Shown here piece by piece: positions 5,935-57,398 of a DNA stretch of 64,000 bases. The notes beneath the pieces are model-generated. The model saw only the letters and a program-made list of their open reading frames with translations. It had not been told where the DNA came from and did not search any database. How positions within the stretch are numbered: the stretch's first letter is position 1; each line of letters begins with the position of its first letter. Source of the DNA: a phage. The translations under genes were made by a program, and so were the position numbers. Location of the stretch: the NCBI GenBank assembly GCA_025823825.1, contig GCA_025823825.1_4720.1; one strand, written 5' to 3'.

Positions 5935-7224
5935 TTATGCTTTTTCGGTCGCTGCGTTGAAGTATTTCGCTGCAGCAAATACAGCATCCGCATATTGGCG
6001 TATCGAAGCGCGAAGAATCTTGGTTGACAATACCGTACTTAAACGTGCCATTTCAGAAACCGCGCCTACATAAGGACGGATGGTTTCACGATCGGCTTCA
6101 GGCAGCTTGTCAAGCATGTCGCCCCACTTCGTTTTGATTTTCATACCGTTGAGTTTAGCGGTACGCTCCACAGAACCAGCCAAAGCTTCAACCATGTGGA
6201 AATAAGAGGGGTCGATCGTACGGAACACGTTAAGATAGGAAGTCAACGCACCTTTCAGTTCGTTATCGTCTTTGAAAATGTTTGCGTTCTCTATCTCACC
6301 GGTCACCGTCGTCTCGGCTTCAACCCGAATATTTTTCACCAACGTATAGGCTTTAATCGCGTCACGTTCGTTTTCGACGGCGTCGAGACCTTGAATAACG
6401 AAACGTTTCCCACCACTTTCTGGAAAAACAACTTTATTCAGAGCGGATTTGATAGCCAGCAGGTATTTGTCTAAGATAGACGGAAGCAGAGTTAGGTCGG
6501 TGAGGTCTGCGACCTTTTTATTGATATCGGCTACTTGCTTAAACAATGAATCCATCCCGCTTGCGCTTGCAGCGAGTTGTTCGATATGCTTGCTTGCAAA
6601 CATGGCATTCGCTGATTTCGCATTAGGGAACATATTGACCATATTTTCAGTGGGCTTATCCAGTTGTTTGATATGGCGTTCACCTTTATTCACGGCGGTT
6701 GCGATGCCGACAATTTTGTTGTATGCGACGACCAGGTTCTTGAACAGCATCTGGAGCAGTTTGAACAGTTGTTCAGCGATATTTGCAATGATTACCCAGA
6801 CGGCATATAACGCTTGCGCTGCGCGCTCTTTAAAGCCTTCCAGTACAATAGCTTGCCCTTCCACCAAACGATCGTCAGCTTGGAACATGTCTTCATCAGA
6901 CATCCCCAGGTTTGCTGCTGATGTCGAAGCAATCTGACGGATAAAGGCGACGTCGCTTGCACGTGCTTCAGGGATCGTGGGTGCGATCATATACGCTGTA
7001 TCTTCCAGTGTCGCTGATGTACGCACTGCAATCTCAGCCAGTTCGCTGGATTCATCGATTGCCTCGTCGGTACGTTGAATTACCAACTCAACTTCACCCT
7101 CTTCAATTTCTGCGTTAGGATCGTTCTGCTCCGCCGGAATCGTTGCGAGGAGATCTTCAGCACTCAGTAGAGAGAGTTCGAATGCGTTTTTATTGACGTT
7201 GTCAAAAAGAGAAATGCGGGCCAT
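5935..7224 (-). CDS. hypothetical protein, paralog family member with acidic AxE-rich N-terminus (429 aa)
   Basis: ATG with AAGGA RBS; motif SDVAFIRQIASTSAANLGM...VEGQAIVLEGFKERAAQALYAVW aligns with neighbours. Confidence 0.8.
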   Translation of the reverse strand: MARISLFDNVNKNAFELSLLSAEDLLATIPAEQNDPNAEIEEGEVELVIQRTDEAIDESSELAEIAVRTSATLEDTAYMIAPTIPEARASDVAFIRQIASTSAANLGMSDEDMFQADDRLVEGQAIVLEGFKERAAQALYAVWVIIANIAEQLFKLLQMLFKNLVVAYNKIVGIATAVNKGERHIKQLDKPTENMVNMFPNAKSANAMFASKHIEQLAASASGMDSLFKQVADINKKVADLTDLTLLPSILDKYLLAIKSALNKVVFPESGGKRFVIQGLDAVENERDAIKAYTLVKNIRVEAETTVTGEIENANIFKDDNELKGALTSYLNVFRTIDPSYFHMVEALAGSVERTAKLNGMKIKTKWGDMLDKLPEADRETIRPYVGAVSEMARLSTVLSTKILRASIRQYADAVFAAAKYFNAATEKA

Positions 7225-7233
7225 GTTAGTTCC

Positions 7234-8550
7234 TTAACCTTTGGTATAAGCGTTAACGAGAGTATTGATAAATGAAGTCAGTGCGCGAAGATATTGGTAA
7301 GCGAATTGGTTTTCAATGCGGTTCTCTTTACCACAAAGCAGAATCGCGCGCTTAACGAGCTTAGGATAGATCTCGACATACGGTTGGTAGCTTGCGTCAA
7401 AATTCTGCTCGTTGAAGCGTTTCATGGTGATTTCCTGGATACGCTCCATGGTGCGAATTTTATTGCGAGAGAATATCTCAGAGAAAGCACGTCCGCGTTT
7501 TGTTACCATCAACAAATCTTTCGCGAACGTAAGTTGTCGAACGCTACGCAAATCGTCAGGTGTTGGTAGGACGTACGTTTCTGGATCGTTATCCCATTCA
7601 ACATCTTCAACGACAATATCCAAGTCGAGGTAACGTTTAACAGCATCGATGATATTGTCTTTTGACGCATCGAATTCTTTCAAGAAGACTGCACCGTTGA
7701 CGTAGCGGATGCGTTTCCCGGAAACCGTTGGGGTGATAACATCAGCACCTTCCACGGAACCGCGATTTTCCAGTGTCGATTTGACAGCGTGCAAGAAAGA
7801 CAGATAATCAACAGGAAGTTTTTCAACCTTATCTAAATGGAAGTCGATGATGTTTAACCCTAAACCATCAATAACTGAATAACCGTCCGATTTAAGGAAC
7901 ATCTGATTGAAGGTATCAATGTTGCTTTTCAGCGCGTCTACACCACCAACGTTGTTACGGTTAGGGAAAAGCGTCCGCCACTCCGCTTTAAACGCAACTT
8001 CTTTATTTTCCTCGTATTTGCCTTTGGGCATCTGTTCGAGGGCTGCAACGGCTTTCTGAAAATTACGTGTCTCGTCGTAAACAAGACGGGTAAGCTTCTC
8101 GAAAGCTGCTGCCAGTGTCAGGGCAATATCAACAATGATATCCCAGATCTTTTTCATGGCTTTTACAACGGTGTCCTTAAACCCTTCAACAACCAAAGCT
8201 TCTCCAACTTCAACACGATCGGTTGGAGCTAACAATGTTTCAGAGGGTAGACCCAAAGCAATCGATGCGGATTCTTGAACGTTACGAACCAATGCAACGT
8301 CGCTGTAATTAGCCGATTCGATAGTCGGGGCAACATCAAAACTGATTTCCCGTAATGCTTCAACAGCAGGGAAAGCACGATCAAGTGCATCTTCATGTTC
8401 GTCGATTGTTGCCAAACGTAATTCAACACCGTCCGCGTCGATGACCTCAGCTGTCGGTTCCGCAGCAAGCGCCTCAGCAACAATAGGATATTTTTCAAAC
8501 GCCTCAAGGCTGATATCGCCTTGCGACCCAAATAGCGGTATGTGTACCAT
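7234..8550 (-). CDS. hypothetical protein, paralog family member (438 aa from ATG; track start 8574 is TTG)
   Basis: Internal ATG (MVHIPLF) preceded by GGAGA; motif SDVALVRNVQESASIALGL...VEGFKDTVVKAMKKIW parallels 5935-7224. Confidence 0.75.
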   Translation of the reverse strand: MVHIPLFGSQGDISLEAFEKYPIVAEALAAEPTAEVIDADGVELRLATIDEHEDALDRAFPAVEALREISFDVAPTIESANYSDVALVRNVQESASIALGLPSETLLAPTDRVEVGEALVVEGFKDTVVKAMKKIWDIIVDIALTLAAAFEKLTRLVYDETRNFQKAVAALEQMPKGKYEENKEVAFKAEWRTLFPNRNNVGGVDALKSNIDTFNQMFLKSDGYSVIDGLGLNIIDFHLDKVEKLPVDYLSFLHAVKSTLENRGSVEGADVITPTVSGKRIRYVNGAVFLKEFDASKDNIIDAVKRYLDLDIVVEDVEWDNDPETYVLPTPDDLRSVRQLTFAKDLLMVTKRGRAFSEIFSRNKIRTMERIQEITMKRFNEQNFDASYQPYVEIYPKLVKRAILLCGKENRIENQFAYQYLRALTSFINTLVNAYTKG

Positions 8551-8598
8551 GTGTTGTCTCCAGTAATGATTCAAAAGATAAACCTGAGCGGCATAGAA

Positions 8599-8630
8599 CC
8601 CTCTCCCAACCCGTGAGGGAAGGGAGAGGG
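8599..8630. repeat. GC-rich extragenic hairpin element (CCCTCTCCC-AACCCGTGAGGGAA-GGGAGAGGG)
   Basis: 9-bp stem; loop with inner CCC/GGG pairing around GNRA-type GTGA. Confidence 0.6.
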
Positions 8631-8652
8631 AATATGTCAGTTTATTAACTGA

Positions 8653-9984
8653 TTATTTCTGTTCTGCGTCAGCCGGTTTCTCAGCCGTCTGGCCGCCGTA
8701 CTCTTTCAGCATTTTAGCAACGCCATCCAGAACAGCATTACCTGCCTGAACACCGTACTTCATCAGGCTAACCTGCGGGTTGATGTAGCAAGAACGTGCG
8801 TCTTTCAGTGCAGACAGCACGGTTTTAACACGCTGTTTTTCCTGAGCAGAAACTTCGCCTTTCTTAGACAGTTCAGCTTCCATATCGTCGCCGAATTTAA
8901 CGGCGTCTTTGAAGCCCTGGGATTTCTTACCGATGTTACCTTTCGCAGCCAGCAGTTTATCAGCCAGTGCTTCAACACTGTTGATCACCGCAGCCAACTG
9001 GTTCGGGGACAGTACATCAGCTTCCTGTTCCATCGCGGTGATTGCGTTATTACCGCGTTCCCAGGTAACTTTACCGTCGGTGGTTTTGAATCCCCAACCG
9101 TTCGGACCTTTCACATCAGCGATCGCAGGTGCGTTCAGTTTGTCGGTGTACTCAGTATGTGATTTAGACTTAACGAGTTCAACGAATTTATCCGCACGAT
9201 CGTCAGCCGCCTTCATTGCTTTCTCGAAGGTATCTGCGATTTTGCTTGATGCGCCAGCGATATCGGTATCGCCAATGTAACCGGTAACAGTGGTGCCCAG
9301 TTTAACTTTCGCGTTCTTCGGAGAGCCTTTACGTTTGGCGATCATTTCTTTCAGTTTAGCCGCACGCGCTTTCAGTTTGGTTGCACCGTCGAAGATACGA
9401 TCGATGAACTTCACGAAGTTGTCCCAGGTGGATTTCAGGAAGTTCTTAATTGCGGTCCACAGTTTCTGCCACCATTTTTGTTCTTCCAGGAAGATCATGT
9501 TGGTTGCATCGTAACGGGAAGCGGAACCGCCGAAGCTTTCGAAGGACGGCATGGTTTCCGGCAGTTTGAAACCGATAGTACCACACAGACGTTTCAGATT
9601 ACGCATGTGTTCCTGAGCGGTTTGTGCAGACATACCGCCGTCTTTCAGGTAGCTTTCGGTCGCAACAACGGTTTCCGTCAGTTCATCCATGGCTTCGTCC
9701 ATGGCTTCTGCGGTTTCGTCGTCTTTTGCAATTTCGATAACAACGGCATCAACCTGCTCGATATCACCACGAACTTCGATAGCCAGTTCGGTTTCAGCTG
9801 CGGTATCTTCAGCAATTTCAGCACGTTCGGTCAGTTCAGCGACAACGGTTTCATCCGCTGCTGCAGCATCAGCTGCCGGTTCTGCTTCAACGGTTGCCGC
9901 TGCATCCGGATCGATTTCAGCAGCAAGTTGAACCAGCTGTGCGTTAGATGGATTTGCGACAAGACGATCAAAAATAGAAGGCAT
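8653..9984 (-). CDS. hypothetical protein with very acidic Ala/Glu-rich N-terminal third (443 aa); possible distant member of the same family
   Basis: ATG with AAAGGA RBS; N-terminal 100 aa dominated by A/E/D/T; TAA stop at 8653. Confidence 0.75.
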   Translation of the reverse strand: MPSIFDRLVANPSNAQLVQLAAEIDPDAAATVEAEPAADAAAADETVVAELTERAEIAEDTAAETELAIEVRGDIEQVDAVVIEIAKDDETAEAMDEAMDELTETVVATESYLKDGGMSAQTAQEHMRNLKRLCGTIGFKLPETMPSFESFGGSASRYDATNMIFLEEQKWWQKLWTAIKNFLKSTWDNFVKFIDRIFDGATKLKARAAKLKEMIAKRKGSPKNAKVKLGTTVTGYIGDTDIAGASSKIADTFEKAMKAADDRADKFVELVKSKSHTEYTDKLNAPAIADVKGPNGWGFKTTDGKVTWERGNNAITAMEQEADVLSPNQLAAVINSVEALADKLLAAKGNIGKKSQGFKDAVKFGDDMEAELSKKGEVSAQEKQRVKTVLSALKDARSCYINPQVSLMKYGVQAGNAVLDGVAKMLKEYGGQTAEKPADAEQK

Positions 9985-16924: not shown

Positions 16925-19717
16925 TTATCTTACGTTATTGCTATTCTGTTGTTCACTGAACCAACCATACACCTTGAGATCGGTACCGTATTTCAATGCG
17001 ATATACGCATTCAGCGCAGCACAGAACAAAGACGCGAATGCCCATATCAGCGAAGGATCAACATCTTCCGTTACCACTGGGAGAGTATTATCCGGTTCCC
17101 ATGATGGTGAACTGTCCATGAACGTCGCGTACCATCCCCGCCGTTGTTCTTCGGTGGTAAAGTCGCTGTGGGGTTCCAATGCTTCTTTTGCCAGACGTCG
17201 ATATTCGAACATATGCGTTGCTAAAGCCGACGAGTTACCAGATTCGCCTTCATAGTTCGGATCCACCGCATAACAGAGTTCTGTTGAATCTAACAAAGCA
17301 ACCGCCTGTGTGATGCTGTCGGCAGTGCCTGCACCATAGAGCTCGATAGACCGCGAAAGCTTCTCACAGAACGCATTTAACGCGGAAGGATTGGACACCT
17401 GAAGGTCAAGGCCTAATGTCCACGGATAGTTACTGAATACACCCGTAAACCGTGGCATAACACCCAACAGATGCTGTCCGATTACAGCGCGGTTATAAAC
17501 AGCCCTGTTATAGACTTGAAACGCAGCCTCCAAGGCTTGGTTATAATGACGACGAAGTTCGTCACGCGAGTTGCGGAATCTGTTTGCCGCGAGACTCGTG
17601 GCTGCGACGCTACAAACATCGTAATTGGTGGACGAGAGCACAACCTCGTTAAGATCGAACGCTTCCTGTTTCAATGTTCCGCTAACAGCCACCGCTTCGC
17701 TGTTCGCTTTATCGACAACAGTACTCAAAGCGTTGATGTAACGCTTAGCCCGGACTTCCAGCCATTGTGCGATGCCGAGAATATCCACCGCAGCTTTAGC
17801 AAGATCGCGAGCATTCACGATTTCGTTCTTCAACGCCCCTAAATCTTTATTTTCAGGCGATGAGGCTTGTTGACGAATCATGCTGTTCAACATGGTAAGC
17901 AGATTATCCAACTCATGTCCACTGACCTTGTTACGTGCATCGGTAATCGGCCCTTGCAGGAATTTACGGCAACCATCGTTGTATCGAATCAGTTTATCCA
18001 CATCGATAGATTCGTTCGTGGATTCCTTGAACTGATTCTTCAATTCTTCACGGTAATCATGGATTTCACTTGCGAGATTATCGATAGTGATACCGTTATG
18101 TCCAAGAAGAACTTTATTGAAGTTACCTTTCTCGAATGCCAGAGCAAGACCTTCACGAATCTTAGCGAGTTTATCCTGATCGAGTTCACGACCGTTCGAT
18201 AGCTCTTTCACTTCCGAGCTGATTAATGCCGAAACGTTACCCAGATTGTCGGTAACCCCTTTGAACGCTCCCGACCAAATCGTTCCTGCTTCAGCGTATT
18301 TCGCAATGGTCTGAATACCGACGGTGTGCAGCGACGCTAAACGTTTCTTCGTGCCTTCGGTAAGCAGAGCGTCTTTAGCTCGCGTAAGCTGACTGTTATT
18401 AGCTTCTGCCTGCTGAATCGCTGCTTTCGCACTTCCATTACGCCAGCTCTTAACCAGCCAATCAACCAAACGTTTTAGGATATTGACGGTGTATTCCATT
18501 GTCCGCCGTAACGTTTCCCACGCGCTTTCTGCGGTATAGATGCCGTACCCTTCCATCTTCGTTGGGTCAAAGAAACCTTCCTGCATGAGATCAATACGGG
18601 TGTAGCCATCAGCAGCTTCTACTTCCGCCTGGGTTTTATCCCAGAAGTCGTCGCTCTTTGCAGCAACCGCTGTATCTTTAACGTCCAGGATGATCTGACC
18701 AACCGTTTGTGCAAACAGCAAGGCCGCACGTACCGATTGTGCGAACATCCGCTGATATTTGATTCGAACGCATTGCATCTGGGTTAGCAGATTCAGTTGT
18801 GCGATCCCATCCAAGGTGCTATCCTGAGCAAGCCCTTCGGCTTTAGCGATAACCTGTTTTACACGTTCAGCGACATCACCATACTGCTGGCAAACATCCC
18901 GCAGAATACGTGCCGCGAAGACCCCGGTACCGATATAGTTCAATAGGTCTTTTAACGACCATTCGGTCGGACAATCGGTCGGCGCAATAGGGAGTAAGCA
19001 ACCATCACCGTCCATGAATCTCTCTAATGCGCTAATATCCTGATTTTCTACGCTCATGGGGATATCGACATCAGCCGCTTGCAGATCCAGCATCTGTTGT
19101 AGGATGTTGGTATCGGCTTGTACAAGCGTCGCAAGCGCTTGGCTGTGTGCGATTATTGGTAACGCAGGTGACCATACTGCAGCAAGCTTGTCGGCGTGAC
19201 GTTGAATGGCATACCCCATATCCTCGATCACATCGGGATGCTCGATAACCCCCTGAAGCGTTTGATGTAGCTCACCGAGTTGCTGAGACAGATCGACCAT
19301 CATGGTGTTGAAGGTTTCGCCATCCTCTTTGTGGTTGTCCAGACGCTCGAGTTCATGTCGAAGCAATGTGACGAGCTGTCCGTTGCCTTCTTGCTTCAGC
19401 TTGCTTTCCATTAACGTAATGGCTTTATCGACGATCTGACACGCTTCACGAAAACCGGTTGTGGAAGGAAGCTCTGTCCATAACGCCAGCGGTTTACCGT
19501 CAAGGGCTTCCGGCATCGATAACGAAAGCATAGACAGTTGTTGACGTGATACTTGCTGTTCACGGTGTAGTGTTTCTTTTAACGCCAAGAGATCGTCAAG
19601 AAACGCGCCGTTAAGGGTGGTCGTACGCGGTGTTGAATTAATACCGTCAGTTAACGATTCAAGCACCAGGAGACCGTTATCAGCTGAAGAGAGTCCCGCG
19701 GCAAGATATTTGTTCAT
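16925..19717 (-). CDS. large hypothetical protein (930 aa)
   Basis: ATG with upstream ACGGAG; long uninterrupted frame. Confidence 0.8.
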   Translation of the reverse strand: MNKYLAAGLSSADNGLLVLESLTDGINSTPRTTTLNGAFLDDLLALKETLHREQQVSRQQLSMLSLSMPEALDGKPLALWTELPSTTGFREACQIVDKAITLMESKLKQEGNGQLVTLLRHELERLDNHKEDGETFNTMMVDLSQQLGELHQTLQGVIEHPDVIEDMGYAIQRHADKLAAVWSPALPIIAHSQALATLVQADTNILQQMLDLQAADVDIPMSVENQDISALERFMDGDGCLLPIAPTDCPTEWSLKDLLNYIGTGVFAARILRDVCQQYGDVAERVKQVIAKAEGLAQDSTLDGIAQLNLLTQMQCVRIKYQRMFAQSVRAALLFAQTVGQIILDVKDTAVAAKSDDFWDKTQAEVEAADGYTRIDLMQEGFFDPTKMEGYGIYTAESAWETLRRTMEYTVNILKRLVDWLVKSWRNGSAKAAIQQAEANNSQLTRAKDALLTEGTKKRLASLHTVGIQTIAKYAEAGTIWSGAFKGVTDNLGNVSALISSEVKELSNGRELDQDKLAKIREGLALAFEKGNFNKVLLGHNGITIDNLASEIHDYREELKNQFKESTNESIDVDKLIRYNDGCRKFLQGPITDARNKVSGHELDNLLTMLNSMIRQQASSPENKDLGALKNEIVNARDLAKAAVDILGIAQWLEVRAKRYINALSTVVDKANSEAVAVSGTLKQEAFDLNEVVLSSTNYDVCSVAATSLAANRFRNSRDELRRHYNQALEAAFQVYNRAVYNRAVIGQHLLGVMPRFTGVFSNYPWTLGLDLQVSNPSALNAFCEKLSRSIELYGAGTADSITQAVALLDSTELCYAVDPNYEGESGNSSALATHMFEYRRLAKEALEPHSDFTTEEQRRGWYATFMDSSPSWEPDNTLPVVTEDVDPSLIWAFASLFCAALNAYIALKYGTDLKVYGWFSEQQNSNNVR

Positions 19718-49862: not shown

Positions 49863-50063
49863 AAGCACTCCAATCATGGGGGCGAACGCCCCCCATCAGT
49901 TAAATGATCGTTTACGTCGCGTAAGGGTAATATAATTGCTGTGAGCCATATCAGAAGTTCACAACATTCTGAATCATAAGGTTACGTCGTTGGAAACAAA
50001 CCGATACAGATTCTTCATAGAACATTGAGATGATGGAAACCTAATTCGTACCATGAAAGCCGC

Positions 50064-50118
50064 AATAAAAAAAAGAAAAATAGGAAAACGGTGTTCATCC
50101 TTTTAGGGATGAACACCG
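50064..50118 (-). terminator. rho-independent terminator downstream of 50139-50717
   Basis: Perfect 12-bp stem CGGTGTTCATCC/GGATGAACACCG with 6-nt loop, followed on the minus strand by a long U-rich tract. Confidence 0.75.
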
Positions 50119-50138
50119 CGTACCGTTATGTTGAATGC

Positions 50139-50717
50139 TTAGTAAGGAATCAGATCGTTAAGCTTCTCTTCTTCGATAACAAAGAAGTTGTTCTGGTCGT
50201 CTAAATCTGTTAACAAGACTTGCCCGACAGTAAAGCATGTACCACCTTTCTTAGGTGTCCATACCGGCTCGTTCGTTACCTTATCAGGATACCATTTGAA
50301 ACGATTGGTATCCAAGAAGAACGCCGCTTTGTTCTCTTTATCGGTTGAACGATAACTAACCAATGCGGGCCACTCAATCCAGGTATTCGTACACGGTACA
50401 TGTAAAGGGTACCACGCACGCCAACATTTACCTGGTCTGTTAGGATCTATCCAATATTTAGCAAACAATACAGCATCTTTATACTGTTTCTGCATCAGCA
50501 TTTCGAGGACAAGTTCGTTAATTGGTAAACCCGCCTTTTCTTTCGTCACACTAGGAAAACCGACGTACACGTTATTCTTCGACACGGATGATGTAACAAC
50601 ACCGGTAACTAACGGTCTGCTCGGTTTACGTTTCTGTTCTTTCCGACGTGTGTAAAAGAATAGTCCGACAGATACAGCAACAAGTATAATAAACAACACT
50701 ACCTTAATCCAGCTCAT
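50139..50717 (-). CDS. hypothetical membrane-anchored protein (192 aa)
   Basis: ATG in ATGA overlap with upstream gene; N-terminal signal-anchor WIKVVLFIILVAVSVGLFFY followed by basic stretch. Confidence 0.7.
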   Translation of the reverse strand: MSWIKVVLFIILVAVSVGLFFYTRRKEQKRKPSRPLVTGVVTSSVSKNNVYVGFPSVTKEKAGLPINELVLEMLMQKQYKDAVLFAKYWIDPNRPGKCWRAWYPLHVPCTNTWIEWPALVSYRSTDKENKAAFFLDTNRFKWYPDKVTNEPVWTPKKGGTCFTVGQVLLTDLDDQNNFFVIEEEKLNDLIPY

Positions 50718-51463
50718 TCGTCAATTTCTCCTTCTACAAACAGAGTCAATTTGATTTCAGGGTCATAGAACATGGTAATCACACCATCTTGCTCTACTGA
50801 ACGCTGCGCTGTCCATATTAACTGTTCATCCCGAATATCAAATTTATGCCGCTCATCACTCACCACAGCTTCTGCGTCGACGTAATGGTAAACATCGCCG
50901 AGAGGATTCTCAATCCAGCCGCGTACCATCAAACGTTCTTTTTGTTTACGTGTAAAGAAGCGATAAGGATCTTCGCACGTGCGCCACACATCCCCGTTCT
51001 CGTTAACCAGTTCATCATAAACTTTAGAGAGTTCGTCAGGTACCGGAATCAAAATGTTATCCTGATAGTTCGACCAGAAACGACGTACATCTTGGATCAA
51101 CTCATCGTCCTGCAGTTTAATTACCGCGTCACTATAATCGATTTCAACAGTATCGATATCAAGACGGGTAAACGGAAGAGCGTCTAGGTTTATCACAGCG
51201 ACATCGATCCGATCATGATGAATATAAACCCACCCATCAAACCACCTGTAACCATCAGCTTGATATAGCGTTGTGTGGTATCTGACGACGTTGATGTCTT
51301 CGAACGATTCTAATAAGGCTTTAGCTGCTAAAAGCGGCGAAAAGTTCTTTGATTGTCCTGGTTTACGTATTTCTTCTTTGATGAACAATTTACCAAGAGC
51401 TGGATGTTCGATAACAAAACCGCAGGAGAGCATGATGCTTCCTTGATAACGTGCTTCTTGCAT
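50714..51463 (-). CDS. hypothetical protein (249 aa from internal ATG)
   Basis: Internal ATG (MQEARYQ) with GAGGAA 7 nt upstream. Confidence 0.65.
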   Translation of the reverse strand: MQEARYQGSIMLSCGFVIEHPALGKLFIKEEIRKPGQSKNFSPLLAAKALLESFEDINVVRYHTTLYQADGYRWFDGWVYIHHDRIDVAVINLDALPFTRLDIDTVEIDYSDAVIKLQDDELIQDVRRFWSNYQDNILIPVPDELSKVYDELVNENGDVWRTCEDPYRFFTRKQKERLMVRGWIENPLGDVYHYVDAEAVVSDERHKFDIRDEQLIWTAQRSVEQDGVITMFYDPEIKLTLFVEGEIDE

Positions 51464-51638
51464 TTTCCATTCCTCAAACAAATGTGTGTCTTTTACGCGA
51501 CATGATTACTAGTACACAGGTTACTGGATTTCTGTAAAAGTTAATTTTCGTAAACTAAAAGAAAATGTATCCGTGTTTCCTGGTTCTTCCCCTCCACAGC
51601 CTCAGGAAGAGAAGAACCGTTTACTAAGTTGTTATGTA

Positions 51639-51896
51639 TTAAAATGCATTGATTGGATTGTTCAGCGCTTTATCGCGAATTTGAATCGCTGCCAGCATTG
51701 CTTTCTGATACGAATCGTAAGCATCAACAGAAACCGTCATATCAACCAATTTCTCTAATACGGATTCAGCCGCTTTTACGCGGATGCGGAACTTGGTGAT
51801 GACGTTATCTTTGTTACGGTAAACCGTGATGTGGTGCAGCGGCTGGACATTGGTTTTATTCGTTTTAACGGATTTAGTTGCTTTGATCGTTTTCAT
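51639..51896 (-). CDS. small basic hypothetical protein (85 aa)
   Basis: ATG with AAGGAAA RBS. Confidence 0.6.
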   Translation of the reverse strand: MKTIKATKSVKTNKTNVQPLHHITVYRNKDNVITKFRIRVKAAESVLEKLVDMTVSVDAYDSYQKAMLAAIQIRDKALNNPINAF

Positions 51897-51950
51897 GATG
51901 ATTTCCTTCTTTATTAGGATGATTACGTTTAGTCAGTTTAACGGCATAAA

Positions 51951-51975
51951 CCCTTCCTGCCTTACGCAGGAAGGG
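51951..51975. repeat. GC-rich intergenic hairpin (CCCTTCCTGC-CTTAC-GCAGGAAGGG)
   Basis: 10-bp stem, flanked by CGGCATAAA, between 51639-51896 and 51990-52487. Confidence 0.5.
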
Positions 51976-51989
51976 CATACGGATTTGTT

Positions 51990-52487
51990 TTACGTGTGTC
52001 GTCGTTTACCAAAGAAAATGTGGCTGTCTACCACGGTGATATTGGTAGCATGTTTTCTGAAATGCTTAGGGCGAAGATGTTTCGCGTTAAAGAATACGGC
52101 TCCTCGTGTTGGGTCGGCTTTATGGTAAGCCGCAATGTCAGTATAACGTAATGTTGCGACCTCTCGTGCTATTGCTCTTGCTCGCTCAAAAGCAGCATGA
52201 TCGCGTATGACAATACGCCTTTGTTTTGTCCAGGGGAATTGACCTCTCTGCAGTACGACGTCTTTGACGTTCGTAGGGAATCGGTAGTCCATAGATCGAT
52301 TATGTATTAAAAACGCAACGGAGTATTGCCCTTTTACAGATTCGCCTCTGGCTTCCATATACACAGCGCATGCGACGATCTCTTTCCGGCAATCGATTCT
52401 AGGTCCTGCGTTCACCGATGCTTGACTGAACGGTGTGATAAGCAACATAACAAGCCCTAAAATCAACGTGTGTAAAATACCTTGCAT
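51990..52487 (-). CDS. SleB-type cell wall hydrolase (Hydrolase_2 family) with N-terminal signal peptide; endolysin candidate (165 aa)
   Basis: CAVYMEARGESVKGQYSVAFLIHNRS...VLQRGQFPW matches the SleB signature; N-terminal hydrophobic signal LILGLVMLLITPFSQASVNA; ATG with GAGGT RBS. Confidence 0.75.
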   Translation of the reverse strand: MQGILHTLILGLVMLLITPFSQASVNAGPRIDCRKEIVACAVYMEARGESVKGQYSVAFLIHNRSMDYRFPTNVKDVVLQRGQFPWTKQRRIVIRDHAAFERARAIAREVATLRYTDIAAYHKADPTRGAVFFNAKHLRPKHFRKHATNITVVDSHIFFGKRRHT

Positions 52488-52740
52488 CTTAATAACCTCA
52501 CGATAAGGTGCTGTCCACTGGCGTCTTGATAACGCATCCCGTCTATCGGGTTGTTCTATTCAGCGGGCAGCAGGTTAGCGTCAGATGTTTGCCCGACATC
52601 CACGACAGAAATAAACGGTACTGAAAATACGGTCTCCTCTGGTTTGGCAATAAACATAACGTTGGATAACAGAACCCATTTCCCGCATCCAACGCGGTAA
52701 AGGTGTACATCGTTTGAATTCATATAGTTTCTCAAAGATG

Positions 52741-53052
52741 TTAACCTCTACCGTCAAGCCATAGGTTGTATTTATCCCGAAGGTATGGATCACGATAAAT
52801 ACGTCGATAGACTTGATACGGTATAAACTTGCAATGTACGAGTTCGTCGCTTAATTTATGACGTCGCTCCATACCGTTGTGAATACGACGTATCTCCCGG
52901 ATATTAAAGGTTGTTTTATTCAAGAGAATAGACATAATGACGGATCGATGATCCAGATTAAAGATCGCCATTACGCCTCGTATCTCGCGTAAAACAACTT
53001 CTCTATCGACAAGGATGCGATTATTTAACTTAAGATTCTCCGTGATACCCAT
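52741..53052 (-). CDS. hypothetical protein (start uncertain)
   Basis: Track start is GTG and overlaps upstream gene; internal ATGs at 53061/53052; competes with overlapping ORF 52581-52793. Confidence 0.35.
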   Translation of the reverse strand: MGITENLKLNNRILVDREVVLREIRGVMAIFNLDHRSVIMSILLNKTTFNIREIRRIHNGMERRHKLSDELVHCKFIPYQVYRRIYRDPYLRDKYNLWLDGRG

Positions 53053-53401
53053 AACCTTCATCCTCGACACGTCGACACATCGGTAAAAATAAACACCAGC
53101 TTGTTGCACTGAGGATCGCCGTTACGATGATATTTGCGATATCACTCAATCGAGCATCGGCTTGCCACATAACAAGCATAAAAAGAACGTACGCGAACCC
53201 ATACACGACAAACCGTCTGATGTTACGCGTCGACCACGTACAAATATACAAAAGGGGAAGTTGTCCTATAACACAAACGATGGTTCGGATAACGTAATAA
53301 ACGCGTTCCGTCGTTGTTTCAAAATCGATATTCGCTGCAGAAATCCCGATCATTATAAAAGTGAAAATGAAATAGATTTTTGCGTATGTCTTTAAACTCA
53401 T
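53030..53401 (-). CDS. hypothetical integral membrane protein (123 aa), about 4 predicted TM helices
   Basis: Hydrophobic segments IYFIFTFIMIGISAA, VIRTIVCVIGQLPLLYI, FVVYGFAYVLFMLVMW, IIVTAILSATSWCLFL. Confidence 0.6.
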   Translation of the reverse strand: MSLKTYAKIYFIFTFIMIGISAANIDFETTTERVYYVIRTIVCVIGQLPLLYICTWSTRNIRRFVVYGFAYVLFMLVMWQADARLSDIANIIVTAILSATSWCLFLPMCRRVEDEGYGYHGES

Positions 53402-53417
53402 GGCTTTTCTCGTTCGT

Positions 53418-53612
53418 TTATTTGCGTTTTCCTACATTCCTCAACAAGGTAACGATAACGAATACCGCTATCATCAAGAAGACGAACCATAACCCTACGT
53501 TAATTCGGGCGGCTGGTACATCCACCATAAGGAACATCGTCCCACAAAAACCAATTACCATCCATGCTAAGACCATCCCTGTTAATCCCCGTAGTAGCAT
53601 ATGTCCCATCAT
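53418..53612 (-). CDS. holin-like small membrane protein (about 64 aa) with tandem start codons
   Basis: AAGGAG then ATG ATG (MMGHM); two TM segments and basic C-terminal tail RNVGKRK; track start 53651 is TTG. Confidence 0.5.
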   Translation of the reverse strand: MMGHMLLRGLTGMVLAWMVIGFCGTMFLMVDVPAARINVGLWFVFLMIAVFVIVTLLRNVGKRK

Positions 53613-53785
53613 GAACTCCTTCTTACTTTTTCTGATAGAGCGATGATTCAAATTTTAGAAACACCGCTAACGCGAGTGCGATTAATAACGCACGTACCCA
53701 CATACCTCCTTGACAACTGTTGTACAACATAAAGACCAGAGCGATGCCGCCCATATGCAGGCGGCACTTATCGAACAGTGTTGGT

Positions 53786-53995
53786 TTATACATAAGAGAT
53801 CAATCGTTGAGTGATTTTTACTTTGCCTTTACCTGGGCCTTTCTTACAGCGATTCAACAGACGGATACGAGTTCGGGTTACGACGTCGCCATCATAATCA
53901 GCCTGGAACTGTGATAAGAAAGCAGGTTGTATCGGATCGACACCAGGATTGCTATAGAAAGGATTGAGACTTAAAAGAGGGTTAGCTGGAATCAT
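53786..53995 (-). CDS. small hypothetical protein (69 aa)
   Basis: ATG with AAGGA 7 nt upstream. Confidence 0.45.
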   Translation of the reverse strand: MIPANPLLSLNPFYSNPGVDPIQPAFLSQFQADYDGDVVTRTRIRLLNRCKKGPGKGKVKITQRLISYV

Positions 53996-54013
53996 CGTAT
54001 TGTCCTTACTCAG

Positions 54014-54364
54014 TTATTTACCCAGATAGAGGTATTCACCACCCTGAACAACACCGGTTGCTGGATCAACAAGTATACGAACCCGCGCGTAGGTCTTGAA
54101 AGAGGGGTTGAAAACTTCGAAGTCCGCCACTTTCAATTTCACGCTGGGGTTGATTGGGTTCTTAACACCAGGAAGTTCTTTCGGGGTACCGAAGTCAACA
54201 CCGCATTCTTCAAGGTCTGCTGGCGTCATGCTCTCCATGGCCATGTAGATTGTTTTTGCTTTATCGTAAACTTCCGGGCTATCCAGCAATCCCGCCTGCG
54301 CCGAACCGATAACACTACCGAACAGAATAGCAACAGCAACAAACAATTTAGTTAACGTTTTCAT
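54014..54364 (-). CDS. secreted hypothetical protein (116 aa)
   Basis: Signal peptide MKTLTKLFVAVAILFGSVIGSAQA; ATG with AAGGAAA RBS. Confidence 0.65.
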   Translation of the reverse strand: MKTLTKLFVAVAILFGSVIGSAQAGLLDSPEVYDKAKTIYMAMESMTPADLEECGVDFGTPKELPGVKNPINPSVKLKVADFEVFNPSFKTYARVRILVDPATGVVQGGEYLYLGK

Positions 54365-54402
54365 GATCGTTTCCTTAATAACTTAAATAAACCAATTTAG
54401 TA

Positions 54403-54825
54403 TTAACGTACAGCCGCTACGCTGCGAGCGCATGCCTGAATATCATCGGTGTTTACGATGATGGTTTCGTTAAACGCACGAATACGTGCGCGACGTGCTT
54501 CTTTAAGGCTGGCGATTGCGCTAGCAGCTTGATCTGTATTCGCAAGGCTAATAACCGGGATCAAACGCATGTCAGGACTGCAGATATTCAATGCTTGGTA
54601 CACACGTCCATTGATTCCCACGGTATCAGACATCGGATAGTGCGCACGGCATTGAAATTGACCCATGACAACAAGCGAACGATCGGAGATACCAATCTGA
54701 TAACGGCCGTCTTCGCTGTAGGCGTAGCAGTTATTCCCACGAGCCATCCAGTTAGCCTGTGCTTGTGTGCTAACAAAAGCCAGGGTGGTGACGATAGCGA
54801 ATACGATATTTTTGAACAGTTTCAT
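54403..54825 (-). CDS. secreted hypothetical protein (140 aa from internal ATG)
   Basis: Internal ATG gives signal peptide MKLFKNIVFAIVTTLAFVSTQAQA; AAGGA 8 nt upstream. Confidence 0.6.
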   Translation of the reverse strand: MKLFKNIVFAIVTTLAFVSTQAQANWMARGNNCYAYSEDGRYQIGISDRSLVVMGQFQCRAHYPMSDTVGINGRVYQALNICSPDMRLIPVISLANTDQAASAIASLKEARRARIRAFNETIIVNTDDIQACARSVAAVR

Positions 54826-54883
54826 GATAAAGATCCTTATTGAAATAAAATCGGTATAAAGGCCCCCATTTAGGGGGACCTGA

Positions 54884-55201
54884 TTAGTTTGCACGTAAGA
54901 AATGACCCAGAACCGTTACGATTGGAAACAGCCCTGTAACAGTATTATCACCCGAAAACATCATCATTGTTCCGTTAACGGTGATGAAACGGATGTCGGT
55001 TGCGGACCCATCGATAGCGACAAAACGCATCGAGTTCGGTGGAAGGTCCTCAACCACTTCCACGAGGTACTCGCGATTATCAAAGGCTTCTTTAACACGA
55101 CGCATGAAACGAATCAAGGTTCCTTCCGCGTCAGCTTCCAAATGACCTAAGATATCGCGATTATTACGAATAGCAAATACAGCCATTTTAAACATACTCA
55201 T
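54884..55201 (-). CDS. hypothetical protein (105 aa)
   Basis: ATG with AAAGGA RBS. Confidence 0.6.
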   Translation of the reverse strand: MSMFKMAVFAIRNNRDILGHLEADAEGTLIRFMRRVKEAFDNREYLVEVVEDLPPNSMRFVAIDGSATDIRFITVNGTMMMFSGDNTVTGLFPIVTVLGHFLRAN

Positions 55202-55309
55202 CTTGACATCCTTTTATATTGGATTGGTTGCTAATAATTCAAGGTGAAGCTGATTACTGCATTGCTTCACCTAAGTAATATAGCCGTGAAAATTAATGTA
55301 TTAACCCAT

Positions 55310-56263
55310 TCACGCTTTTGCTAAGTAGGGTTGGATCTCATTAATCCGTTTAACCACAACCTCAGGGAAAAGTTTGAGTATTTCATCAGGTGGTATCGTA
55401 CCTTCTGTCCAACGATAGCGTTCGACCATCTCGATGCGTGGACTCCCTCCGACATCAGCGATACGAAAGATACAGGCGATGCCTAAATCGAAGCATACGC
55501 TGTAAATATCTTCCGTACCTCCTTTATCAGCAAGTATTTTCGCAAAATGCTCGTTGTCAGGAAGAATGGCTAAATTACGGATACACCAAACATTACTACC
55601 CATTTCTTCAAGTTTTGGGTAAGTTAAAGTGTGTCCGTATTGTGTTAACCATCGATGACTTTCGAGGTAGAAGTCCTTATCCCCTGGTCGATAACCCAAT
55701 ATCACTCCCGTGTAGAAGAGATTGGGCATATCGAGCAGTTCTCGAATCGTTGGGCCGGTATGCTCCCAGAGACAGATTTGTTTACGGTCTATATCGTAAT
55801 CTGTGACGTTACTCACCTCCCAACTTATCGTAAGTTCATCGGCAACACGCCAACCTAAAGCATGTTCGCCACCAAGCAGATTAACAATGGCCGATATTTC
55901 ATACTTGTCAAATACACCCAAATTACACGGCGGCTGCATCGTACGTAATGGCTCCCACAGCACATTGTAATCATAGAGCAAATGGCGACATAAACTTTTT
56001 GTTAGGGGTGTCTGTTCAGTGAAAAGTGGAAGAATCACCGTATCCAATAACGGGCGTAACGGATGATCGTTCGGTGGTAACGGGGCAGCCAGCCGACCTC
56101 CTTCTTTGGGGTAATCGAGACCAAACCCGTAGCGCTCCGAAATAAGCGCAACCAGCACTTTTGCTACGCGGTTACGTAGCATGCGATGGATATCATCACT
56201 GTAACTGAATTTCGGTTTATTTCCGCAAACGAAGGTGAAGTATCTAGGCGATAGCTTAACCAT
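55310..56263 (-). CDS. hypothetical protein (317 aa from internal ATG; track start is TTG)
   Basis: Internal ATG (MVKLSPRYF) with AAGGAA 6-7 nt upstream, 10 nt after stop of upstream gene. Confidence 0.7.
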   Translation of the reverse strand: MVKLSPRYFTFVCGNKPKFSYSDDIHRMLRNRVAKVLVALISERYGFGLDYPKEGGRLAAPLPPNDHPLRPLLDTVILPLFTEQTPLTKSLCRHLLYDYNVLWEPLRTMQPPCNLGVFDKYEISAIVNLLGGEHALGWRVADELTISWEVSNVTDYDIDRKQICLWEHTGPTIRELLDMPNLFYTGVILGYRPGDKDFYLESHRWLTQYGHTLTYPKLEEMGSNVWCIRNLAILPDNEHFAKILADKGGTEDIYSVCFDLGIACIFRIADVGGSPRIEMVERYRWTEGTIPPDEILKLFPEVVVKRINEIQPYLAKA

Positions 56264-56273
56264 AGTCTTTTCC

Positions 56274-56720
56274 TTAATCCAGATAGTACGTGATGGATAG
56301 GTCTTTTCCATCGAATACAATATCCGTGCAGTCGTGGATGGTCGGTAATACCATTTTTGCTGCTATTGGGACGTATGCTTGCAACTCCATGAAGTTATTC
56401 ATACGGAACGCACGACGTACCATCAGCGGCGTTAGCGTAAACGTTACGCTGACGTTACCGCTTGGGAGCAGGTGCATTATCGCATGTCCATGATCGCACC
56501 AGCAATGGTTTTCGATCCATCCGGTGTAAATCAGAATGTCTTTATCTTCGTCGTAATAAGCAATGCCGGGCTGCTTTAGATGACTAGTGAATCGAGAGGC
56601 TTGCTCGTAGCCTGCACGCAACATTCGAGCAACCAGTCGAGTATTGTTAGCGATTCGATTCTGTTCGTTGGTTTTTGTGGTTTTGAAAATTTCGATACGT
56701 TCTGCTTTTGTAATTTGCAT
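56274..56720 (-). CDS. hypothetical protein (148 aa) with Cys/His cluster (CWCDHGH)
   Basis: Complete ORF; possible metal-binding residues. Confidence 0.65.
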   Translation of the reverse strand: MQITKAERIEIFKTTKTNEQNRIANNTRLVARMLRAGYEQASRFTSHLKQPGIAYYDEDKDILIYTGWIENHCWCDHGHAIMHLLPSGNVSVTFTLTPLMVRRAFRMNNFMELQAYVPIAAKMVLPTIHDCTDIVFDGKDLSITYYLD

Positions 56721-56798
56721 GATTACTGTCCTTTTGAAATATGTTTAGATAAGGAGGATTTACCGGGTATTAAAAAGTTATTTGGTGTGTAATGTTTT

Positions 56799-57398
56799 TT
56801 ACTTAGGTTCCAGTATTGGTCCGAACAACCAGAATGTCAGACGCTGGTAAACCTGTTCGATGACTGCAGCTTCTGTTTGCTCTTCTAGTGCTTTCCCTTT
56901 CTTATGTTGTATTTCTGGCGGGATGTCGCCGTTGTAAACATACTCTGTTGAGAAGTCCCACGCCAGCCGTTTACCGAAAGTGGGTAAGAACACCTCTTCG
57001 AATCGGAACGCTTTCGAATTCCAATGCAACAGCTGATCGGATTCAACACGTAAAGCTTTATTACGTTTGCTTGGCATGTTTCCGAAGTACTGAACGATAG
57101 CTGATTTCATAACCCGATCTGCGAAGTCTTTGGCTTCGGCCTCATCGAGGGGAGGCAGACGATGTGATAGATTCAGCTTGCGTTGTTCAACATCGATCTT
57201 ACGCATCGCTTTAATCAAATCACTAGGAACGATTTTACCCTTATGGCCTTCCTGTCGGTGTATGAAACACCCCTGGAATAACACGCAAAGTTCTTGAGGC
57301 GCGCTACTTTCCATTCGTCCGTAAGCAACGATCACCGAACGACGACGATCAATAACTTCGCGGATAAACCGCGGCTCAGTAATACTCACCACTGTCAT
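56799..57398 (-). CDS. hypothetical protein (199 aa)
   Basis: ATG with AAGAGGG RBS. Confidence 0.7.
   Translation of the reverse strand: MTVVSITEPRFIREVIDRRRSVIVAYGRMESSAPQELCVLFQGCFIHRQEGHKGKIVPSDLIKAMRKIDVEQRKLNLSHRLPPLDEAEAKDFADRVMKSAIVQYFGNMPSKRNKALRVESDQLLHWNSKAFRFEEVFLPTFGKRLAWDFSTEYVYNGDIPPEIQHKKGKALEEQTEAAVIEQVYQRLTFWLFGPILEPK

Follow-up and report, generated by a model that had tools for sequence, protein, structure and literature searches.

Introduction

Peptidoglycan hydrolases that resemble the Bacillus enzyme SleB are known from phages of the subfamily Vequintavirinae. CB7_83 of Certrevirus CB7 is SleB-like, carries a signal peptide and is toxic when expressed in Escherichia coli, and homologues of it are found throughout the Vequintavirinae (PMC7344957). 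The signal-peptide SleB-like proteins of this group have been described as an extra lysin beside another endolysin: in CB7 a T5-type peptidase is the second candidate endolysin, the spanins are encoded elsewhere, and a classic lysis cassette is absent (PMC7344957). Here we analyse a gene of this kind, its conserved RNA leader and its neighbours in a stretch of phage DNA of 64,000 nucleotides (nt; NCBI GenBank assembly GCA_025823825.1, contig GCA_025823825.1_4720.1), referred to below as the window. Judged by nucleotide identity (95.8% over positions 51576-55300), the window comes from a nucleus-forming jumbo coliphage like Escherichia phage vB_EcoM_Goslar, a 237-kb nucleus-forming jumbo phage of the genus Goslarvirus with E. 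coli as host.

Export of a muralytic enzyme by Sec is also a feature of the signal-anchor-release (SAR) endolysin and pinholin systems, such as R21/S21 of phage 21 and Lyz of phage P1, in which the SAR domains have a high content of Gly, Ala and Ser and remain uncleaved. The endolysin Lys44 of Oenococcus phage fOg44 is reportedly exported by Sec with a cleaved signal and independently of a holin, and the holin of that phage is said to act only by collapsing the membrane potential. The host of fOg44 is Gram-positive, however, the fold of Lys44 is different, and Lys44 is the sole endolysin, whereas Goslar has a second, soluble one (see below).

For chimalliviruses, the lysis system of phiKZ sets the expectation of a holin, an endolysin and spanins (PMC12894885). 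Its cassette (gp141/141.1/142/143/144) comprises an adjacent i-spanin, o-spanin, class III holin, regulator and soluble endolysin, as shown experimentally, and was worked out only in 2025-26 (PMC12894885). The phiKZ endolysin is a soluble transglycosylase with a peptidoglycan-binding domain, the class III holin has one transmembrane (TM) segment and the spanins are an Rz/Rz1-type pair, all encoded side by side; in contrast, no such gene type is recognisable in the gene block described here.

For lysis by the enterobacterial nucleus-forming phages (Goslar, SPN3US, Erwinia phages), the block supplies concrete candidates: a holin-independent exported hydrolase, a conserved pair of a 56-amino acid (aa) protein and a protein with two TM segments (2-TM protein), and a secreted two-domain protein. 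Knockdown tools have already been used on Goslar. The hydrolase is already annotated in Goslar, and its enzyme class has been noted in other phages; the leader RNA, the unannotated gene of the 56-aa protein and the split or fused secreted protein are new.

A SleB-type hydrolase with an export signal

The window corresponds to approximately 58.5-122.5 kb of Goslar (coordinate offset). The genes of the block, all of them on the minus strand, have their matches in Goslar gp098-gp104. They were compared with Goslar, with further contigs of the Goslar clade (L008 and L013, hydrolase about 90% identical), and with a sister clade (L010 and L212-L214, up to 255 kb, hydrolase about 48-51% identical). 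The Goslar genome annotation was covered apart from about 4 kb within the tail-fibre genes, for which the window was used. TM segments and signal peptides were called by hydropathy scan.

An earlier note on this DNA, made by a model from the letters alone, had described a 165-aa SleB/Hydrolase_2-type protein with an N-terminal signal sequence, and this description holds. The open reading frame (ORF) is present, its product has a hydrophobic N-terminus, and the Hydrolase_2 search that the note proposed as a check gave a match to Pfam PF07486 over the whole model (1-100 of 100; E = 4.2e-16, 59.8 bits at a cutoff of 27). The protein also matches PHROG 938 'endolysin' (E = 3.9e-16). In Goslar, its orthologue gp098 is annotated as 'putative cell wall hydrolase' (GenBank) or 'endolysin' (RefSeq), and the neighbouring genes as 'hypothetical protein'; a literature search found no study of the Goslar hydrolase.

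Phmmer aligns the hydrolase with the catalytic domains of B. cereus and B. anthracis SleB (4F55, 4FET), matching avYmEaRGE to avYgEsRGE. Bacillus SleB thus shares with it the family of the catalytic domain and the Glu-containing motif YxE(A/S)RGE. Residues E45, A46, R47 and E49 are invariant in the alignment across both clades. Glu45 of YMEARGE we take to be the catalytic Glu, in line with the SleB structures. By homology to SleB, the protein is probably a lytic transglycosylase. In contrast to SleB proper it lacks the N-terminal PG_binding_1 domain (Hydrolase_2 is its one Pfam domain), and it has a Cys pair before the catalytic motif (Cys33/Cys40) that is kept in both clades, consistent with a disulfide-bonded periplasmic protein. 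The muramic-delta-lactam cortex cannot be the substrate in E. coli. The protein is net basic (27 Lys and Arg against 12 Asp and Glu).

The N-terminal hydrophobic segment spans residues 3-21, with the core TLILGLVMLLITPF followed by SQA-SV, and the signal peptide would comprise approximately residues 1-23, with predicted cleavage between SQA and SV. A hydrophobic core and small residues at -3 and -1 (an AxA-type site), as looked for in a Sec type I signal, are both present. The xQA motif is kept in the sister clade despite a diverged h-region (FAAQA-KS). In-frame upstream starts exist in contigs L008 and L009, in a frame that is not conserved. An exhaustive phmmer search returned 3244 cluster representatives at E<=0.001, and an N-terminal hydrophobic segment was found in 129 of the 153 sequences closest to the hydrolase; the signal is hence a trait of the family and not an invention of the phage.

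According to these features the hydrolase is almost certainly exported by Sec, as had been proposed. The further suggestion of a SAR endolysin does not agree with the data: only 3 of the 14 core residues are Gly, Ala, Ser or Thr, the core is strongly hydrophobic, and the xQA cleavage site is conserved. The N-terminus looks like an ordinary cleavable type I signal peptide rather than a SAR anchor. The protein shares with R21/S21 and P1 Lyz the Sec-dependent export of a muralytic activity and a nearby 2-TM protein of pinholin topology, yet it belongs to a different enzyme family, and the conserved signal peptidase motif suggests that it is cleaved, not released. With a cleavable-type signal there would be no membrane tether that a pinholin could release.

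Related hydrolases are common among phages. A tblastn search found relatives in 1043 of 50,697 phage records, mostly in phages of Escherichia, Salmonella and Klebsiella with genomes of about 110-150 kb; CR9 and other Vequintavirinae are among these, as are Klebsiella phages of about 110 kb. The 180-kb Salmonella phage Arash carries a relative as well, and among the best 60 of the 1043 records Goslar is the sole jumbo (>200 kb) phage. Together with the published Vequintavirinae lysins (PMC7344957), these counts speak against the former view of the enzyme as an atypical endolysin choice. The Vequintavirinae hydrolases (CB7 gp83, Cronobacter phage CR3 gp087, CR9 SleB) are likewise small single-domain Hydrolase_2 proteins with a signal peptide, encoded by large virulent enterobacterial phages, and show about 30-36% identity to the hydrolase of the window. 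In contrast to them, the phage of the window is a nucleus-forming jumbo phage with conserved small membrane and secreted genes near the hydrolase gene.

A conserved structured leader

The hydrolase gene is preceded by a leader of about 250 nt which is 98-100% identical in four Goslar-clade genomes, at 63-90% identity in the flanking coding DNA. Blocks of it are identical in the sister clade as well, including at third-codon positions; an invariant block, TATGTTTATTGCCAAACCAGAGGAG, lies at 52658-52634. RNAalifold places a hairpin with an invariant CGGGCAA loop at 52599-52585, in which three of the four stem pairs covary, with three variants, and an 18-pair long-range helix between 52584-52561 and 52520-52497, with two compensatory pairs and one GC/GU change. 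Overall there are five compensatory pairs. Standard pairing is found in 154 of 154 cells for seven sequences and in 220 of 220 cells for ten distinct sequences, and falls to 23-41% on sliding of the partner strand.

The 3' strand of the helix enters the Shine-Dalgarno sequence CGUGAGG (GAGG at 52499-52496), and the hydrolase ATG is at 52487. Folding of single sequences gives the full helix in the sister clade. In the Goslar clade the inner helix is kept and a local hairpin (ACCUUA/UGAGGU) buries the Shine-Dalgarno sequence. The different folds in the two clades suggest alternative conformers. The leader appears to restrain translation of the hydrolase. As a small element with clear limits, it is a candidate for controlling the translation of a toxic phage gene.

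A coding function of this region was considered and rejected. An ORF of 55 aa exists in L008 and one of 72 aa in L010 and L212, and there is none of 45 or more codons on the reading strand of L213 and L214; moreover, the indels between the blocks are of varying length and out of triplet register, and the third-codon positions within the conserved blocks do not vary. From the lack of a shared ORF, the non-triplet indels and the invariant third positions we conclude that the leader is non-coding.

A Rfam scan of positions 50000-57000 (E<=1) gave nothing relevant. A covariance model of the leader matched at the leader locus only, when searched against the window, five Goslar loci and 23 IMG/VR loci with hydrolase relatives, Goslar 100-119 kb being represented in this search only by the window. 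The leader was thus not found at these 23 loci, whose membership of the Vequintavirinae is unverified. A 14-mer scan of IMG/VR for the leader gave chance matches only. A metagenome scan added eight more contigs with the leader, all of the Goslar clade and with no new covariation.

A second endolysin in Goslar and the role of the hydrolase

The hydrolase had been taken for the only recognisable muralytic enzyme. Within the window this stands: in a Pfam sweep of the 56 other window ORFs, no muralytic family is among the matches listed (25 of 33 families). In the Goslar genome it does not, as two further enzymes are found there. A lysozyme domain is part of Goslar gp204, a tail protein of 2252 aa. 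Goslar gp024 (17700-18335, 211 aa) matches Glyco_hydro_108 (2.1e-19) and PG_binding_3 (8.1e-20) and has no hydrophobic segment, and is by its domains of the standard soluble, holin-dependent endolysin architecture. Many jumbo phages (PaBG, phiEaH2, Stratton, Asesino, SPN3US, SEGD1, pVa-21) have homologues of gp024, with 43-53% identity, and its position at the end of the virion and tail block is the same in SPN3US and Asesino. As in CB7, a SleB-like gene hence coexists with another candidate endolysin.

As Goslar has an ordinary endolysin elsewhere, the hydrolase is probably a helper enzyme. We hypothesize that it is an accessory, Sec-exported and holin-independent periplasmic hydrolase with leader-restrained translation, encoded in a conserved block of envelope genes that may include a holin; this is a reading in which we place as much belief as doubt. 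The signal peptide would take the hydrolase to the periplasm without a holin, where it would attack the sacculus from the outer side of the cytoplasmic membrane, gp024 being the principal soluble endolysin. A free periplasmic hydrolase would be dangerous to the infected cell, and its synthesis therefore appears to be throttled. In the proposed mechanism, the leader would pair the Shine-Dalgarno region with a distal segment or with an adjacent anti-Shine-Dalgarno sequence. Besides the hydrolase, the block encodes the two-domain secreted protein, which is split in two in the window, the 56-aa membrane protein and the 2-TM protein. Directly observed are the enzyme family, the export signal, conservation and gene order, the second endolysin of Goslar and the covariation in the leader, whereas cleavage of the signal peptide, activity of the enzyme, the helper role, control of translation by the leader and a holin function of any protein are inferred. 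If the hydrolase is only a helper lysin, the finding is an ordinary one.

Several observations weigh against this hypothesis. In the n-region of the hydrolase, MQGILH, neither Lys nor Arg occurs, an unusual feature in a Sec signal. The covariation in the leader stems from two clades and one sub-split, and its z-scores are modest (-1.3 to -2.4). The conserved neighbourhood may reflect mere collinearity of two related genera, as the region from ligase to tail fibre is syntenic. Located among virion genes, gp024 might instead be an enzyme of the virion, in which case gp098 would remain as the real endolysin; gp024 also lies outside the window, and its presence in the phage of the window is assumed from Goslar. 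Finally, no holin or spanin was identified beside gp024 or elsewhere in Goslar.

The neighbouring genes and a possible lysis cassette

The features of the block are collected in Table 1, together with a lipoprotein gene located elsewhere in the window. The five ORFs of the earlier note are all present at the coordinates it gave. The ORFs of the block are conserved in Goslar and in L008 and L013, and the sister clade has all of them but the gene of the membrane protein with three to four TM segments. This conservation argues that they are real genes and not chance ORFs. The region from NAD ligase to tail fibre is collinear between the sister clade and Goslar. In the sister clade a 230-aa secreted protein comes first, followed by a 2-TM protein of 80 aa, a protein of 66 aa and a second 2-TM protein, of 67 aa, whose tail is basic; then come several small proteins with a (K/R)xGPGKG(K/R) motif, a gap of about 265 nt, and the hydrolase.

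Table 1. Features of the hydrolase locus and of a distant lipoprotein gene; positions refer to the window
Feature	Position	Strand	Evidence
Exported single-domain SleB/CwlJ-type (Hydrolase_2) peptidoglycan hydrolase, 165 aa, Goslar gp098 orthologue	51990..52487	-	Pfam, PHROG, phmmer
Conserved non-coding 5' leader of the hydrolase gene	52488..52740	-	Nucleotide identity, RNAalifold
gp099-like small soluble basic protein, function unassigned	52741..53061	-	63-73% nt identity to L008, fast-evolving
Membrane protein with 3-4 TM segments, gp100-like, variable accessory gene	53030..53401	-	Hydropathy scan
2-TM membrane protein, 63-64 aa, gp101-like, basic C-terminal tail RNVGKRK	53418..53612	-	Hydropathy scan
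56-aa small membrane protein, N-terminal motif YKxTxFDKxRLHxGG and hydrophobic hairpin	53623..53793	-	Cross-clade conservation
gp102-like 69-aa protein, KKGPGKGK motif	53786..53995	-	Small paralogous family, expanded in sister clade
SP1, gp103-like, 116 aa, signal peptide ...SAQA-G	54014..54364	-	Hydropathy scan
SP2, gp104-like, 140 aa, signal peptide ...AQA-N, 4 conserved Cys	54403..54825	-	Hydropathy scan
GC-rich stem-loop GGTCCCCC-TAAAT-GGGGGCC, then T-rich tract	54861..54880	-	Sequence
gp088-like lipoprotein, 167 aa, signal MKKLCAIILGMLMVLSLGG-C, LGGC lipobox, no C-terminal TM segment	43065-43568	-	Lipobox scan

The block had been proposed to be a lysis cassette built on the hydrolase. In the fuller form of this model considered here, the periplasmic hydrolase is the endolysin, and depolarisation of the membrane by a 2-TM protein of the pinholin type triggers or sensitises wall degradation; the 56-aa protein or the protein with three to four TM segments would modulate the holin, and the periplasmic proteins would handle the outer membrane. 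We consider this unlikely but deserving of serious attention, given that it is the densest cluster of small membrane and exported proteins in the Goslar genome, that gene order is retained in the sister clade, that a search of the rest of Goslar gave no canonical holin or spanin pair, and that the CB7 homologue is toxic on expression (PMC7344957). Against it stand the cleavable-type signal, which is not a SAR signal, and the soluble endolysin gp024, whose homologues occupy the same position in SPN3US and Asesino. The earlier note had itself named a canonical endolysin and holin elsewhere in the genome as a finding that would count against a cassette; Goslar provides the endolysin but no canonical holin.

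The 2-TM protein has the size and topology of a class II holin or pinholin, a TM1 that contains Gly and Thr, and a basic tail. Its two TM segments, the tail and the tandem starts (ATGATG at 53612-53607, behind GAAGGAG) are present just as the earlier note described them. However, no holin family is matched: the best Pfam entry is Phage_holin_3_6 (E = 0.099, 13.1 bits at a cutoff of 28.4), there is no PHROG match, and, in contrast to the general likeness in topology, there is no homology to S21. The protein may thus be called holin-like by size and topology only. Positional counterparts in the sister clade have the same topology and a basic tail at only 13-21% identity. An antiholin isoform arising from the tandem starts is not borne out, as no charged residue lies between the two Met residues and ATGATG is not conserved, the N-terminus being MMGHMLLRG in the window and MIWLKLLRG in L008 and L013.

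Immediately upstream of the 2-TM gene is the gene of the 56-aa protein, which is unannotated in both Goslar records and whose stop codon is 10 nt upstream of the 2-TM start. Its product is 39-46% identical to the 66-aa protein of the sister clade, with the motif YKxTxFDKxRLHxGG invariant, and on this conservation it is a real small membrane-protein gene. The two genes form a pair like that of a holin and an antiholin, and the two proteins are the best holin and antiholin candidates in the window. The gene described as encoding a 4-TM membrane protein is present as an ORF, with three hydrophobic segments over threshold in the copy of the window and four in that of Goslar. Its distribution is one of clean presence and absence: it is found in the window and in Goslar and is absent from close relatives, namely L008, L013 and the sister clade.

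In a classic multigene cassette, holin, endolysin and spanins would all be recognisable and adjoin one another. The hydrolase and the holin-like candidates span 1.2 kb, with variable genes between them and no spanins in the block; in the sister clade, the hydrolase gene is set apart from the membrane genes by five to six unrelated ones. At 22 other phage loci with SleB-like genes, small TM ORFs showed no convincing enrichment (22 close to the gene, 20 in control windows of about twice the size, a crude and weak comparison).

The two signal-peptide proteins of the block, SP2 and SP1, had been regarded as spanin-like or periplasmic factors. Their AQA signal peptides agree with a periplasmic location, whereas they have no lipobox, membrane anchor or coiled coil and are hence not spanins. 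The N-terminal 140 residues of the 230-aa secreted protein of the sister clade (L010 7010-7708) are 32% identical to SP2, with the four Cys residues conserved, and its C-terminal 85 residues are 31% identical to mature SP1. As each aligns to one part of the 230-aa protein, SP2 and SP1 are split halves of one periplasmic protein, and the alignments point to a gene fusion or fission event. An AlphaFold model of the fused protein (predicted local distance difference test score 74.7) has a beta-rich N-domain and a C-domain of one helix and four strands, the latter modelled as an alpha+beta roll like that of cystatin or PepSY, with no significant fold match. A PepSY Pfam match, as a YpeB-like partner would have, was not found among the neighbours of the hydrolase, and the resemblance in fold is generic.

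As a self-contained cassette of the SAR and pinholin style, built on an unusual enzyme, the proposal is borne out in part only.

Other small membrane proteins and lipoproteins in Goslar

Only one convincing lipoprotein, gp088-like, emerged when the window and the Goslar genome were scanned for lipoboxes. As an o-spanin or u-spanin it was rejected, for it has no C-terminal TM segment and no upstream i-spanin and adjoins tail-fibre genes. Its location directly downstream of the tail-fibre and tail-fibre-assembly genes suggests a receptor-blocking exclusion protein of the Llp/Cor type rather than an o-spanin.

Further small membrane proteins of Goslar in a greedy gene call are gp122, gp002/gp003, gp182 and gp189, none of which adjoins gp024. 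Goslar gp122 (124162-124446; contig L005, 5163-5447) is a holin-like protein of 94 aa with two TM segments and a highly charged C-terminal tail. Goslar gp189 (contig L007, 15665-16216) is Rz-like, with an N-terminal TM segment and a coiled-coil-like region; as a spanin it was rejected, since a lipoprotein partner was not found.

Relation to infection phenotypes

Goslar-infected cells show 'characteristic cell envelope bulging' (10.1101/2021.10.25.465362). In ChmA-knockdown infections, essentially only the early programme of Goslar is expressed, no nuclei are visible, and none of the cells had lysed by 150 minutes post infection (10.1101/2023.09.20.558163). The knockdown cells were apparently recognised by their bulging; the figure legend covers both strains, and the text is not explicit (10.1101/2023.09.20.558163). 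Early-only expression together with the absence of lysis indicates that lysis needs late genes, while bulging may not.

These data may suggest that the hydrolase is a wall-remodelling factor which acts in the periplasm before lysis. It would loosen the sacculus, so that the cell widens around the phage nucleus and bulges; the leader would keep the dose sub-lytic, and the neighbouring proteins would be partners or unrelated envelope factors. If true, a phage enzyme would be linked to the unexplained bulging. The knockdown result, with an early programme that runs essentially alone and zero lysed cells, fits this proposal, as do holin-independent export and the occlusion of the Shine-Dalgarno sequence, which suggests low or gated translation. 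Moreover, gp098 stands among small non-structural genes, of a kind that is typical of the large early class (175 of 249 genes). On the other hand, no cause has been assigned to the bulging, which could stem from the size of the nucleus or from inhibited division; swelling is also seen with chimalliviruses that lack the hydrolase gene, phiKZ among them; and late tail-fibre genes lie directly downstream on the same strand. We therefore think such a role quite improbable.

A wider version joins both functions. A small dose of the SleB-type enzyme, set by the new leader as a switch that occludes the Shine-Dalgarno sequence, would remodel the sacculus together with SP2/SP1 as a partner (possibly PepSY/YpeB-like) and cause bulging, and lysis would be left to the glycoside hydrolase family 108 endolysin and holins, perhaps the pair of 56-aa and 2-TM proteins. 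This more detailed scheme is more doubtful still.

Finally, the genes of the block may be accessory ones with no relation to each other, serving superinfection exclusion or host takeover and held together only by general collinearity, with the hydrolase dispensable and horizontally acquired. Relatives of the hydrolase are scattered over unrelated phage groups, which suggests horizontal spread, the gene with three to four TM segments comes and goes, the gp099-like gene evolves fast, and the whole region from ligase to tail fibre is collinear between the clades. Exclusion systems, T4 Sp and Imm for example, typically involve periplasmic proteins and small membrane proteins. Yet the catalytic motif and the signal of the hydrolase are retained in every relative examined, the leader is under strong constraint at the nucleotide level, and the 56-aa protein and SP2/SP1 are conserved across clades. 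Of the explanations considered, this one is the least credible to us, and we regard it as very unlikely.

Further features of the region

The gp102-like protein is the single copy in the window of a family of basic proteins with the motif (K/R)xGPGKG(K/R), of which three to five copies stand between hydrolase and membrane genes in the sister clade. Those of L010 are located at 5942-6265, 8341-9249 and 9452-9736, and further copies occur in L212-L214. The family has no match in Pfam or PHROG.

A scan for sigma-70 promoters and terminators found promoter-like sites to be rarer than in shuffled sequences; it is uninformative, because the phage has its own RNA polymerases. The GC-rich stem-loop of Table 1 is not among the terminators annotated in Goslar. 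It lies 4 nt past the stop codon of the gp105-like gene and 35 nt ahead of the SP2 start, and a stem-loop of different sequence occupies the equivalent position in L010 (6962-6981). A terminator or processing site at the upstream edge of the block is possible.

At the other end, 1.3 kb downstream of the hydrolase, a gp094-like 192-aa protein is encoded on the minus strand (window 50139-50717), in which an N-terminal TM segment is followed by RRKEQKRK.

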